A stretch of 64,000 nucleotides of DNA from Roseibacillus sp. Its GTDB lineage: Bacteria; Verrucomicrobiota; Verrucomicrobiia; Verrucomicrobiales; Akkermansiaceae. This document shows positions 59,463 through 63,654 of this stretch, in pieces. The stretch is from positions 640,001-704,000 of the forward strand of contig JBPOGI010000001.1 in assembly GCA_051251855.1 (NCBI GenBank), in the 5' to 3' direction. The notes below the pieces were generated by a model. That model was not told the DNA's origin. It made no database searches and was given only the letters and a program-made list of their open reading frames with translations. The translations under genes were made by a program, and so were the position numbers. Position 1 is the first letter of the stretch; the number at the start of each line of letters is the position of its first letter.

Positions 59463-59660
59463 TCAGCGTTTTGCTATTTTTTCCAGCAGCTCGAGAATTT
59501 TTCCCATCCAGCCGACGATGATGGTACATCCTGTAAGTTGGAGGCTTCTCGTAAGCTCCTCATCAAACAAGGCGTAGATTGCCCAAGCCCCGAGAAGGAG
59601 GGCTAAAGTATACAAGGCTGAGACGAAATAGCTGACATTTCGGTTGTTGCTTACTGACAC
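59463..59660 (-). CDS. Small hypothetical 2-TM protein
   Basis: 65-aa hydrophobic ORF filling the gap. Confidence 0.5.
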   Translation of the reverse strand: MSVSNNRNVSYFVSALYTLALLLGAWAIYALFDEELTRSLQLTGCTIIVGWMGKILELLEKIAKR

Positions 59661-59734: not shown

Positions 59735-60412
59735 ATGGCGACTGCTGGAGATCTTGACTATAATCGTGCCTTGGATGCCTTGGAGGCAGGGGACTTAAAC
59801 GGAGCTCTTGTAGCAGTGGAATCGGCTTTGATGTTTGACTCCAAGGATGGCGGTTATTGGCAACTTTACTCGGTTCTCTTGGCACAGGCGGGGAGAAGTG
59901 ACGATGCGGCAAAGGCAAAAGTGAAGGCGGAAGAATTTGGTTTGGATGAGGTGGATTCTCTTTTGATGAAGGCAGCCGAAGCAGCGGCTTCTCAGAGTTG
60001 GAATAAGGCGGTGACTGCATGCGAAAAGGCGCTCGAGATGGCACCTGAACGAGGTGAAGTTTGGGCAAGCTACGCAGCCAACCTCATGGAGGGAGGCTAT
60101 CAGAAGGATGCTTTGGAGGCCTCGGAGAAGGCTGCTACACTGGTCGCTGATGAGCCTCAGGTCTGGTATTTACGAGGCCGTGTTCTTCGTCTTAATGAAA
60201 AGCTAGAGGAAGCTGTTCCCGCCTACCTGAAAGCGGTGGAATTGGATTCGGGCTTTGCGTTGGCGTGGTATGAAAAGGGGATGGTGCATCACCAAATGGA
60301 GGATTTTGAGGCGGCAAAGGAATGTTTTTTGAAAGCCAAGGAGCTGAAGCTTGATGACCCTGGGGTTGAGGAGGCATTGCGTATTGTTTCCGAATCTAAA
60401 AAGGAAAAGTGA
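59735..60412 (+). CDS. Tetratricopeptide repeat protein
   Basis: About six TPR-like units (W...G..........A...Y.KA.EL). Confidence 0.88.
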   Translation: MATAGDLDYNRALDALEAGDLNGALVAVESALMFDSKDGGYWQLYSVLLAQAGRSDDAAKAKVKAEEFGLDEVDSLLMKAAEAAASQSWNKAVTACEKALEMAPERGEVWASYAANLMEGGYQKDALEASEKAATLVADEPQVWYLRGRVLRLNEKLEEAVPAYLKAVELDSGFALAWYEKGMVHHQMEDFEAAKECFLKAKELKLDDPGVEEALRIVSESKKEK

Positions 60413-60477: not shown

Positions 60478-61002
60478 TTATCCGATTTTGGATAGGGCCT
60501 TTCGAAAGCTCTCTGAGGAAATATCGTCAGGATACCTTCGAATGCACTCGTGCAGGAAGTCCATCAGAGCCTCAATTTCTTCATCCGAGAAGCTTGAAAC
60601 CTTAGCATGTGCTCCCCGTCTCGAGAGCCCAGAAGCAATGTAATCAGCGATGATGTCGGCCTCTTGAGGATTGCTCAGTTCAGCAATCATGAACGTCGGT
60701 AGCCAATAGCGATAGGCCTTTAGCGTGAAGAACGAAAGTGCATCCGCATAGCAGCGAAGTTCCGCTGCAGTGTGCGCGAAGCGTTCCCTACCAGTGAAGT
60801 GTTCGAATATTCCTTCGTCTTGTTCGCTTGCGGAAATATCTTCAAAGGTGCTCCCAGGAAATGGAGTGTGGGCAAATGCATCTTTGATTTTTTTGGTGAG
60901 ATTCTCTTCGATACTCCGAGAGGCCTCGGCTTCCTCGACCACGGAAGGATCATACCCGCGCTCGCGCATCTGATAAGCGTGGTCTTCCCGAGGTTGATTC
61001 AT
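60478..61002 (-). CDS. Hypothetical protein, DUF6714-like (putative cassette 4)
   Basis: I..AF...PFPG and ALSFFT.KAYRYWLP.FM motifs. Confidence 0.65.
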   Translation of the reverse strand: MNQPREDHAYQMRERGYDPSVVEEAEASRSIEENLTKKIKDAFAHTPFPGSTFEDISASEQDEGIFEHFTGRERFAHTAAELRCYADALSFFTLKAYRYWLPTFMIAELSNPQEADIIADYIASGLSRRGAHAKVSSFSDEEIEALMDFLHECIRRYPDDISSESFRKALSKIG

Positions 61003-61007
61003 ATTTT

Positions 61008-61126
61008 GGCAGCTGGTTTCAGCGTTCCCGCCTAGAGAGTTTTCGGGCCTTCTACTGCTTCTACCACGCTCTCTACTCCAGTCAACGTCTGACCCGCTAG
61101 TGAGGTCTTACTGTGATACGTTCCAA
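61008..61126 (-). mobile_element. Highly degenerate attC relic
   Basis: CTACTCCAGTCAA-CGTCTGACCCGCTAGTGAGGTC aligns with CTGCTCCAGTCAAGCATCCGACTCGTCAGCGCGGTC of the 62285 site; R boxes lost. Confidence 0.5.
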
Positions 61127-61741
61127 TTATTCGTTCTCCTCGAAGAAGTAGGCGGCTTCCCAACTGGTAGTATCTTCATCTCGCTCAATATCTAATTCTG
61201 GATGAAGCTTTTTTGCCTCGTCTAAGCTGACGATAAACATTCTAAAATTTAGGACGAGATCCTCACTCATGGTCTTGGATTTCTTGGTGTAGACGACCTC
61301 TCCAGTGGCCTCGGTGGTTGAGCTTTTCCACGATGATCTTACAAATGCATAATCGTCGATATCATAGTTGTAGCCTCCAGCCCACAACCTCCAACTCCGA
61401 CGGAAAAGGTTCTCAGAGGTTTGGTTCTCAGGCTCCGGAAAATCAACGTAGAAGCTTCGATCCGCAATGAGCACATCCTTGTGAACCTCGTCTCCATTCG
61501 CCCACATAATCTGGTCGTAGGTTCGATTCCGAAAAGGTTTGATAGTCGAGCTGTTTTCAGTGCGGAAAATCGCAACCTGATTTTGATTCGGACGAGCCGT
61601 AAACCTCTGCTTCTGGATGTTAAGGTCCTCAGGTGCTAAAGTTTTATGCTTAGCGACAGAGACGACCTCGTTGCTAGGCTCTGGAGATTGCTTCTCACAG
61701 GAGGAGACGATGAAGCAAAGAAGTAGAAGTTCGATTCGCAT
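61127..61741 (-). CDS. Hypothetical lipoprotein (cassette 3)
   Basis: MRIELLLLCFIVSS-C lipobox-like signal; ATG 9 nt after the attC R' box. Confidence 0.7.
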   Translation of the reverse strand: MRIELLLLCFIVSSCEKQSPEPSNEVVSVAKHKTLAPEDLNIQKQRFTARPNQNQVAIFRTENSSTIKPFRNRTYDQIMWANGDEVHKDVLIADRSFYVDFPEPENQTSENLFRRSWRLWAGGYNYDIDDYAFVRSSWKSSTTEATGEVVYTKKSKTMSEDLVLNFRMFIVSLDEAKKLHPELDIERDEDTTSWEAAYFFEENE

Positions 61742-61750
61742 GTCTTTATT

Positions 61751-61877
61751 ACCGAATGTTTCAGCACAGCCAATCAGACCATCTCACGCACTTTCAGTAT
61801 TTTTATCACGCGCCTTCCTGTCGTCAATCTCGAACCCGTCAGCGCGGTTGGAATTATGGTTCTGCGTCTGGTTAGAT
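61751..61877 (-). mobile_element. attC site (127 bp), partly degenerate
   Basis: Minus strand ATCTAAC-CAGAC-GCAGAACC ... GCTGTGC-TGAAAC-ATTCGGT (R' GTT changed to ATT); homologous to the 62285 site. Confidence 0.75.
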
Positions 61878-62279
61878 CTAGTTTGATTCTGGATAGTCGA
61901 TTAAATGAATTTTCAGCGGCTTCATCGAGATGTAATTGTCTAAAAAATACCATCCGCCATCTGGCCCCTCTCGGTAAATTTGCTGAGCAATACGAAATTG
62001 TCCGGGAGTATGACGCTCCTCAGGAAAATAGACAAACCCTCGATCTTTTGATGGACTTGCGACGAATGGGCCAATTAGAGGATCTTCTTTCGAAGATGAT
62101 TTGATGAAAATTTCCCCGTTTATCCACACCGCCTTGACATCAGAATTCTGTGCATCCGTTTTTTTGGAAGTGATTGGGTTCGAGTCCGAAGTCTCATTCG
62201 GTAATTGTTGCTGTTCGCAACCAAGAGGAAGCAACAAAATGGAGCCGAGTAAAGATAGCGCGCATCGAATAATCCTCAT
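61878..62279 (-). CDS. Hypothetical lipoprotein (cassette 2)
   Basis: MRIIRCALSLLGSILLLPLG-C lipobox-like signal; start 5 nt after R', stop abuts the next attC. Confidence 0.7.
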   Translation of the reverse strand: MRIIRCALSLLGSILLLPLGCEQQQLPNETSDSNPITSKKTDAQNSDVKAVWINGEIFIKSSSKEDPLIGPFVASPSKDRGFVYFPEERHTPGQFRIAQQIYREGPDGGWYFLDNYISMKPLKIHLIDYPESN

Positions 62280-62284
62280 CTTCA

Positions 62285-62413
62285 GCCGAACGTTTAAGCA
62301 CACCCGATCCGACCGATTCAGCACGCTTTCCTAAGTTCTTTAGATTTTCCTGCTCCAGTCAAGCATCCGACTCGTCAGCGCGGTCGGATTTATGGTGTTG
62401 CGTTTTGTTAGGA
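62285..62413 (-). mobile_element. attC site (129 bp), apparently intact
   Basis: Minus strand R'' TCCTAAC, 5-bp spacer, L'' GCAACACC, ATCCGACCG...CGGTCGGAT stem, L' GGTGTGC (one extrahelical base), TTAAAC, R' GTTCGGC. Confidence 0.85.
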
Positions 62414-62414
62414 A

Positions 62415-62906
62415 CTAGTTTTCCCACTCGTTCTTCATGAACCCCTCGTTCTCGACCTCTCCAGCAGGAAGATTGTTACAGAGAAAGAGTAACTTCATCA
62501 TCGGACGGTCCGTAGTTCCTGTAACTCTAAACTCAATTTTACGATTTTGGTTAAGATGCTTCCCGTTGCTAATCCATTTCCTTATCTCAGGAAGCTCATC
62601 CAACTCGGCTGCGATCTTTTTAACGACGGATCGGTCGACACTGTCATACCAATATATTGTGTCAGCCGTCAGAACCTCAAACTCCGAACCTAGGGTGCTA
62701 TACCCTCCAGAAGCGCTAGATTCTCGGTCTGGCCCATCGGGAAAAGCAATGGTTAGTTTCTCATTCGCCAATGCTAAGGCCAGTTGTTGCATCGTGGCGG
62801 CGCTTTCTTCTGCAATTCGACGCTCTAAACGCTTTGAGCTTTTCAATGATGCCCACCCGAGAACTAGACAGATGAGAGGAAGCAGAATTAAAGCCGTGAT
62901 TTTCAT
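62415..62906 (-). CDS. Hypothetical exported/membrane-anchored protein (cassette 1)
   Basis: N-terminal hydrophobic segment; stop 1 nt before the attC R'' box. Confidence 0.7.
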   Translation of the reverse strand: MKITALILLPLICLVLGWASLKSSKRLERRIAEESAATMQQLALALANEKLTIAFPDGPDRESSASGGYSTLGSEFEVLTADTIYWYDSVDRSVVKKIAAELDELPEIRKWISNGKHLNQNRKIEFRVTGTTDRPMMKLLFLCNNLPAGEVENEGFMKNEWEN

Positions 62907-62942
62907 ATCCTCATATCTAAAGCGAACTTGGCATCAGTGAGT

Positions 62943-63030
62943 TTTCAGTCGAACAAGTTATTAAACAGATTCCTCCTCCTATTAAGGGATTCATCACGAA
63001 AAAATTGGGTGAGTTAGGGGGAGAAGTCAA
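62943..63030 (-). promoter_or_regulatory. Candidate attI/attG-like junction and Pc-like promoter
   Basis: G|TTCGACTGAA at 62954 matches G|TTCGGCTGAA, which starts cassette 2; upstream TTGACT-N17-CAATTT. Confidence 0.4.
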
Positions 63031-63276
63031 GATGCGCTCTGGGTTTGGTGGACTGTAGAGGCAGTTTTGGCTGATTTTCTCGATAATGTTGCGAGTGGAA
63101 GTCGTCTTTTTGAGGCTGTGCAAGCCCTGAGCGTGAGATGAGTCGACTCCTTGGCTCCTCGATGCATGCAAGATAAAGCATCAATTCTTAGGCGGATCTA
63201 GGCGAGTAAATGGTCCTTATTCAGGGGTGGGCTTTTTATTTTGCAAATGTTAATCAATTCCGGCATTGTTCTGGAG

Positions 63277-63654
63277 ATGGCTGCTCGAAGAAAGACTACC
63301 CGCCGCAAACCTACTGGTGCGGCTGCTCGAAAGCGTAAGCCGAGCCGTCAGGTCATGGAGGCGCGGACTCAGAGTATTGCGATTTTGAATCGAGGGGCCT
63401 TCGGACTTTTGATGATTTTGATTTGTGTCGCGGTCGGGGTCACCGTTTTTCCCCAGTGGGAAGAATTGAAACGGCTGGAAGTAGAGCTCGATGAGACTAT
63501 TCAGGAAGAGGAATCCGCTCTTGCGATGGCTGACCAGAGGAGTCGCGAGTTGAGTGCGCTGCGCAACGATAGCGAGTATCAAGGCCTACGTGGTCGCGAC
63601 CTCTTGGATCTGTATGTTCCAGGAGAGACCATTATTCGTATTCGTCGCGATTGA
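63277..63654 (+). CDS. FtsB/DivIC-like septum formation initiator
   Basis: Basic N-terminus, single TM, coiled coil, L..D..Y....R..L....PGE motif. Confidence 0.75.
   Translation: MAARRKTTRRKPTGAAARKRKPSRQVMEARTQSIAILNRGAFGLLMILICVAVGVTVFPQWEELKRLEVELDETIQEEESALAMADQRSRELSALRNDSEYQGLRGRDLLDLYVPGETIIRIRRD

Follow-up and report, generated by a model that had tools for sequence, protein, structure and literature searches.

How does a row of gene cassettes come to stand in a chromosome with no integrase beside it, and what becomes of its genes? The question is raised by an insert in Roseibacillus sp. (genome G000, 4.96 Mb, assembly GCA_051251855.1), within a 64,000-nt stretch of contig JBPOGI010000001.1 (C1:640001–704000), hereafter the window. 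Between a tetratricopeptide repeat (TPR) gene and an ftsB-like gene lie four open reading frames (ORFs; genes A–D), all on the minus strand, which a preliminary description of the same DNA had taken for an integrase-less integron cassette array (CALIN). The array is indeed a CALIN under the definition in the available text of PMC4889954: it holds two or more attC sites, which match a family profile, and no nearby intI. CALINs are common, and their origin and the expression of their genes are open questions (PMC4889954). By sequence likeness, the head of this array (62952–63030) is the attI and cassette promoter (Pc) platform of one IntI clade, cognate to the genome's IntI2, and we consider it rather probable that an IntI2-type integron settled at the locus, loaded A–D in turn and then lost intI.

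The array is an insertion: the gap that it fills is empty in the two relatives keeping the gene order. Among nine loci with a TPR orthologue, the TPR and ftsB genes are adjacent without attC in G001 and G005 (gaps of ∼290 and 55 nt), which is what the interval comparison proposed at the outset yielded; the remaining loci have other neighbours or end at a contig break. At 29 ftsB loci of relatives (±1.5 kb) there is likewise neither intI nor an attC of the window family, by a profile that would miss other attC families. The system had been called lineage-specific, which holds for the insertion and not for the attC family, present in 20 of 41 genomes across the genus and family. The GC content of the whole insert is 47%, against 52% in the left flank and 53.7% in the genome. 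The ORFs, first described as visibly AT-richer than their neighbours, are modestly so for B–D (GC 0.47, 0.44 and 0.47) and not for A (0.50), the flanking genes having 0.50–0.52 (serA 0.57).

An attI/Pc platform at the head of the array

The platform consists of a crossover site and a −35 box at a near-constant distance. TTGACY stands 72–76 nt before the crossover in all five platforms compared (the window, C6 and the C1 start of G000, C63 of G007 and C2 of G004), and C/G-A-n-n-n-T follows it after 17 nt in four of the five, the site at the C1 start ending in C. The region upstream of gene D matches both that site and the attI position of the C6 integron, whose crossover is fixed by 186 nt at 100% identity with a C5 cassette, beginning at the G of GTT.

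The attI pattern was drawn solely from two sites beside an IntI2 gene, C6 and G007 C63. With up to two mismatches it matches the genome 32 times, and three of these matches have TTGAC 70–82 nt upstream: C6, C1:711 and window position 62954. At the last, an AAT(A/G)A(A/C)TT|GTT core with TTGAC 72–76 nt upstream lies directly before the first cassette, and the third IntI2 integron, G004 C2, shows the same layout out of sample. A profile built from six platforms of relatives only ranks C6 (E 1e-6), C1:709 (E 1e-5) and the window (E 1e-4) highest, the next match being at 0.09; since a pattern for which G000 was one source had led to four of the six, the test falls short of full independence. From the predicted Pc, gene D would be transcribed.

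The head is attI-like over ∼80 nt, unlike the short GWT sites termed attG, which resemble neither attI nor attC. It is also no complete integron, in which intI adjoins attI: an ftsB-like gene follows it instead. One could suppose that a cassette entered a chance attI2-like chromosomal site and that more were added there or at its attC. Such seeding at attG is efficient in E. coli and has been proposed for small CALINs, and the small arrays and single sites (SALINs) among housekeeping genes treated in the available text (10.1101/2022.09.11.507474) are akin to 13 dispersed clusters in this genome, most of them without a head of the window type. For the array itself we regard this origin as improbable: attG sites are short and unlike attI, whereas the window head is homologous to real attI with an upstream −35 box, has in common with IntI2-linked sites two distinct elements a fixed distance apart, and is one of only three such combinations in 4.96 Mb, all of them heading arrays. 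The head lies just outside the extent first given to the array, 60478–62954, and had been missed, as had the decay from head to tail.

attC sites, integrases and decay along the array

The attC family is ∼130 bp long. An iterated profile search, answering an earlier suggestion to look for the element genome-wide, found 69 copies. Of these, 43 belong to arrays next to intI or lie on the tangled ends of contigs; the other 26 make up the 13 dispersed clusters, nine of which hold at least two sites. Across 23 copies the canonical structure pairs 95.8% of cells, against 25–37% when slid, with four pairs changed on both sides; the copies being related, this figure is not a probability. On the bottom strand the family shows R''/R' AAC–GTT cores, L boxes, extrahelical bases and a central spacer that stays unpaired, and this strand folds better than the top strand in a consensus-like copy (z −2.79 vs −0.91) and in a second one (−1.75 vs −1.00). 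R'' complements the cassette's own 5' end at 7/7 positions in 30 of 35 integron-linked cassettes (mean 6.77 vs 5.42 shuffled, with 0 of 10 000 shuffles as high), the mark of a crossover at G|TT that leaves a chimeric R'.

In the window, the related elements of 120–130 bp said to separate the ORFs number three (E3, E2 and E1; Table 1), and none follows gene A. A fourth attC was sought in the 65-nt gap after A, where the match to the consensus is not significant (z 0.9, p 0.19). The covariance model is family-specific; E3 and E2 are in the training set of model R1, and E1, which is not, matches it at 27.7 bits (E 8e-5). Full attC architecture had been claimed for the best element, at 62285–62413, and this is E3, which keeps AAC and GTT (R'' TCCTAAC at 62413–62407, R' GTT at 62292–62290). 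The folding test proposed for the elements had a mixed outcome: E3, alone among the three, has a canonical predicted bottom-strand hairpin, not significant by itself (z −1.33, 26 of 200 shuffles as good), and E2 and E1 fold no better than shuffles (z +1.56 and +0.26). Starts and stops lie close to the recognisable attC sites, as had been noted: genes D and C end next to R'' or within it, and the starts of C and B are at most ∼25 nt from the preceding crossover. Gene C starts at an ATG, its open frame beginning at GTG 62324, inside attC. The folds of E2 and E1 are what ordinary intergenic repeats among resident genes would give, a reading that we consider refuted: two intI genes have arrays of this very family next to them, R'' and R' show their complementarity, and the locus is empty in relatives.

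Table 1. Features of the array and its flanks, in window positions
Feature	Position	Strand	Remarks
TPR gene (PF00515)	59735–60412	+	Chromosomal flank, outside the array
Gene A	60478–61002	−	174 aa; DUF6714; no recognisable attC after it; presumed oldest gene
attC E1, decayed	∼61012–61135	−	AAT in place of AAC, no GTT, eroded arms; 32.2 bits, confined to the loop, E 2e-7
Gene B	61127–61741	−	204 aa; predicted lipoprotein
attC E2	61750–61877	−	GTT changed to ATT; 78% identity to consensus; 95.3 bits, E 7e-27; loop TTGACG-16-TAAAAA
Gene C	61878–62264	−	128 aa; ORFan; lipoprotein-like signal (PLG-C) read from the sequence
attC E3	62284–62413	−	AAC and GTT intact; 80% identity to family consensus; 109.9 bits, E 2e-31
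Gene D	62415–62906	−	163 aa; hydrophobic N-terminus; presumed newest cassette
attI-type docking site, IntI2 clade	62952–62969	−	Crossover G|TT at 62954/62953; one mismatch to the IntI2-linked pattern
Predicted Pc promoter of IntI2-type platform	63002–63030	−	−35 TTGACT 63030–63025, 17 nt, −10-like CAATTT 63007–63002
ftsB/divIC-like gene (PF04977)	63277–63654	+	Chromosomal flank outside the array, where intI would be expected

attC scores drop from head to tail in the window (110, 95, 32, none), as they do in seven of the nine dispersed multi-site arrays of the genome (p 0.002). Such a gradient is what cassettes entering one by one at the head and then ageing where they stand would leave, but it says nothing on whether they were loaded before or after the loss of intI. 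Because the sites decay in this direction, most of the array is probably frozen, and because the crossover triplets are lost in E2 and E1, genes A, B and C are probably fixed. The match of R'' to the cassette's own 5' end has decayed as well (D 4/7, C 4/7, B 6/7). The gradient is not expected if a finished piece of a uniform main array had been moved here by rearrangement or an insertion sequence, with no growth in place. Block transfer is among the CALIN origins in the available text of PMC4889954, and IS110-like ends are fused to attCs of the window family in relatives; G000 itself has no PF02371 (IS110) match, the genome has no paralogue of any of the four proteins, and we hold this origin to be very improbable.

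In place of the R'' end of an attC, several relatives have a common sequence that closes with CATGG or CATAG (L078 in G019, L170 in G005, L146, L141, L154, L103 (G022)), which suggests an attC-targeting insertion sequence. Read by eye, L154 has an IS110-like transposase fragment upstream of the altered attC; L078 also carries a group II intron maturase-like fragment. G022 (97% complete) has 11 attC matches, several at scattered mid-contig sites, but nothing that matches TIGR02249 at E ≤ 1e-40. In the window family the loop has a top strand rich in purines; in more distant attC families of the order that strand is A/C-rich. Four dispersed arrays (G000 C11:196.9 kb, C7:175.1 kb, C1:1819.9 kb and C1:24.4 kb) open with (C/T)ACT|GT just before the first gene, against a background of 21 in 3657 called genes; these starts resemble sites that in relatives adjoin a third IntI clade (L115, L116, L118, L120), one that G000 does not encode.

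No tyrosine recombinase had been seen in the window, and none of the genome's seven PF00589 and eight TIGR02249 matches falls inside it. The search for IntI elsewhere that had been recommended brought up two intact-looking integrases: only the proteins on C7 and C6 pass the TIGR02249 cut-off of 265 (386 and 317 bits). IntI1 (C7) and IntI2 (C6) are each divergent from an array, giving two complete integrons off the window contig; they are 37% identical and belong to different clades. The C6 integrase has the IntI fold and catalytic motifs and aligns to IntI4 (PDB 2a3v) at E 1e-60. The first cassette of its integron is also found in the C5 array (C6:12612–12797 = C5:65–250, identical over at least 186 nt). 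Candidate trans-acting integrases for the window array are present, and IntI2 or IntI1 could still insert at its attI or at E3; trans use of CALINs is stated in the accessible part of PMC9668308, and half of the CALINs surveyed in the available text of PMC4889954 have intI elsewhere in the genome. From their motifs, attI and E3 look probably usable, with A–C fixed.

Both integrases (C6:12910–14325 and C7:5874–7313; frames of 471 and 479 aa) carry N-terminal extensions of ∼160–170 aa before the IntI4-like part; throughout the family, frames generally exceed the 315 positions of the model. A LexA-like box was not found before either intI of G000.

Orphan heads in relatives and the history of the array

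Heads outnumber intact intI2 genes in G000 (3:1), G007 (3:1) and G004 (2:1, with a second integrase, of another clade, on C19), and G008 has one head with a stub only and G060 one head without a stub. The intI2 5' stubs, all with stops, run from 53 to 115 codons (G007 C18, aa 7–59; G008 C95, aa 14–90; G004 C15, aa 10–124), and no stub was found at the heads of G007 C6 and G060 C9. Cassettes bounded by attC follow the heads at G007 C18, G004 C15 and G060 C9. These cases suggest that several species have lost intI, down to stubs of graded length, while the head stayed in place. The underlying pattern search, over 301 genomes, gave at least 23 places in 18 genomes against at least 6 reversed-control matches among the matches listed, and 10 of the 23 places were followed (3 in G000, 7 in relatives). 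The place at G079 C17, without attC or cassette, was treated as chance. Excision of the orphan heads at a GWT inside intI was considered; the three stubs show no common junction when read by eye.

A second intI-less IntI2-type head in G000 lies at C1:1–970 (L024). It shares the 90 nt upstream of its −35 box with C6 (z 7.0), to about the likely intI2 start codon, and, by contig overlaps and the assembly graph, appears to run on into an array tail, C10 or C11, whose attCs are close to consensus.

For the window, the course that we favour would begin with an IntI2-type integron settling in the TPR–ftsB gap. The four cassettes would then have been taken up singly, A first and D last, and intI2 deleted afterwards, leaving Pc, attI and a decaying array. 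Several results weigh against it. An IntI remnant was not found in 62951–63300 (tblastn with four IntI proteins, best E 0.2), and no other platform significantly resembles the window over the 90 nt before its −35 box (best p 0.09), so that the deletion of intI is inferred from relatives only. No examined relative holds an integron at the TPR–ftsB locus, and metagenome scans for the ftsB-like protein and for D gave no loci. Finally, as E3 alone folds no better than shuffles and the 5' end of D fits its R'' at 4/7 only, D is not a recent arrival.

The surplus of heads, seen in three of the four genus genomes with a platform (G008 having a stub only), can also be read as copying: the head by itself (Pc and attI, with no more of intI than a 5' fragment) would have been placed here, and the four cassettes loaded in trans by the single IntI2. 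G007 C18, 95% identical to the intact copy for 282 nt and then abruptly ending, suits this, as does the intI-less head at the C1 start, which the assembly graph appears to connect to near-consensus attC tails. Stubs of differing length with stops are equally predicted by stepwise deletion, though, and the junctions, read by eye, have no common GWT crossover signature. No evidence dates cassette entry relative to intI loss, and we regard this version as a possible but clearly less likely one than settlement of a whole integron followed by loss of intI.

Cassette expression, cargo and meaning

A promoter-like box, TTGACW-13-TGN-TAGAAS, aimed at the next cassette, occupies the attC loop. No 5-mers of the loop are better conserved than TTGAC and TAGAA, either in the integron-linked copies (exact in 36 and 35 of 36) or in 51 copies of relatives (exact in 41 and 35). 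By permutation with matched bases, p is 0.001 in the 26 dispersed copies and 0.0007 in 22 copies of relatives left after de-duplication, a set in which TAGAA is exact in only 9 and falls outside the top six 5-mers. The spacer varies in sequence and is 16 nt long in nearly all rows. This agrees with the host σ70 spacing (TTGACN, spacer 16–17, TA at −12/−11), as derived from 2564 upstream regions of called genes, where TTGACN with TA at −12/−11 has 21 and 14 matches at spacers 16 and 17 vs 1–6 at other spacers. In E1 the box is exact to the consensus (TTGACT 61085–61080, TGG, TAGAAG 61063–61058), although the recombination cores are lost; a box that helps to transcribe the next cassette, as each attC loop box is predicted to do, would explain why it was kept while the arms decayed.

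Other features speak against a promoter. The host favours T at −7 (21 TAnnnT vs 1 TAGA at spacer 16), and the box has G, C or A there (27, 8 and 1 of 36 integron-linked copies). E3 keeps the −35 and has lost the −10, TG and −10 having changed to CTA AAGAAC. The 26 dispersed sites show no clear excess of boxes outliving cores: nine have the box kept and the core lost, five the reverse, three both and nine neither. More distant attC families in the order lack the box, and a generic promoter scan, with five sites against 2.9 expected, recovered E2's alone among the loop boxes. On these motifs, we put the chances that the box is a working promoter as even. Single cases have been measured elsewhere: one promoter at an attC facing the next cassette in Vibrio DAT722 (PMC2945992) and start sites inside attC for the Vibrionaceae cassette F2 (10.1101/2023.11.21.568050); as far as those texts go, they differ from the box here, which is a sequence feature of a whole attC family. 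The available text of the reviews PMC8876359 and PMC8946536 presents cassettes as mostly promoterless and does not mention a family-wide attC promoter; none was found in the literature searched, which left out most subscription papers and all supplements.

The cargo had been described as ORFans, which holds for C only. Gene A matches PF20461 (DUF6714) at 27.5 bits (cut-off 27) and has 292 representatives at E ≤ 0.001, itself included. Gene B has 11 non-self homologues, one labelled Verrucomicrobiota, with Cys15 invariant, and occurs in 5 of 200 family genomes (6 loci). Its two closest genomic homologues (71% and 65%) are attC-flanked cassettes at other loci, in G117 and G007, the other four having no flanking attC, which points to mobile cargo. 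The B model is a predicted beta-rich fold (pLDDT 76.8) with no PDB match at E ≤ 0.001. Gene C has no non-self match among five candidates and no Pfam family. Gene D has two non-self homologues (82% and 56%), no Pfam family, no NCBIfam or PADLOC match better than E 0.01 and no usable atlas match. A defence or other function was considered for the cargo and not adopted (best PADLOC E 0.014, best NCBIfam E 0.11, atlas matches below 0.9 or none). The hydrophobic N-terminus of D makes it likely to be exported or anchored. By their N-termini B and C, and probably D, look like exported proteins, so that the cargo is likely to belong to the cell surface.

The flanks had been identified as a TPR and an ftsB-like gene, and PF00515 and PF04977 matches agree, the latter (21.7 bits) below its cut-off of 28.9. 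On the far side of the TPR gene, a 65-codon hydrophobic ORF (59463–59660, minus strand) lies between it and the phosphotransferase system (PTS) IIA gene; the five relatives in the genus that retain the two genes have a much shorter gap, in which this ORF was not detected.

Among known arrays, the CALINs surveyed in PMC4889954 are alike in having at least two attC sites, no nearby intI or pseudogene, few cassettes, uncharacterised genes and intI elsewhere; according to the available text, attI could not be searched for there, whereas the window head is identified and tied to one integrase clade. The Shewanella prophage M16-3 carries a CALIN with its own attI (PMC9892861), in the part of that paper available a single prophage, while the heads here are chromosomal, on separate contigs, in several species and with graded stubs. 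Xanthomonas CALINs at fixed loci have been read as relics of old integron activity (10.1101/2025.06.18.660453, available text). As far as these sources go, a CALIN with attI and a single attC promoter are thus already in print, and what is new here is the orphan attI/Pc head tied to the IntI2 clade and the family-wide promoter-like loop box.

The sedentary chromosomal integron of Vibrio cholerae (IntI4) likewise has a homogeneous attC family of ∼130 bp with a long terminal loop. Its VCR sites measure ∼128 bp. Unlike V. cholerae, the present host has two IntI clades with long N-terminal extensions and many satellite arrays.

The array is small, probably frozen for the most part, and carries cargo without a found function, and its own importance is modest. 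The genus, on the other hand, offers a graded series at one head type (full intI2, 5' stub, nothing) together with a candidate built-in promoter, which make CALIN origin and expression testable with short DNA fragments. Tentatively, the genus may hold a distributed integron, in which one integrase serves several copied attI/Pc heads spread over the chromosome and each attC brings a weak promoter, so that cassettes could be expressed anywhere and kept as genes after their hairpins decay and the promoter alone is left, as at E1 and gene A. The array in the window is likely what remains of a gene-capture site, one that an integrase encoded elsewhere in the genome could still load.

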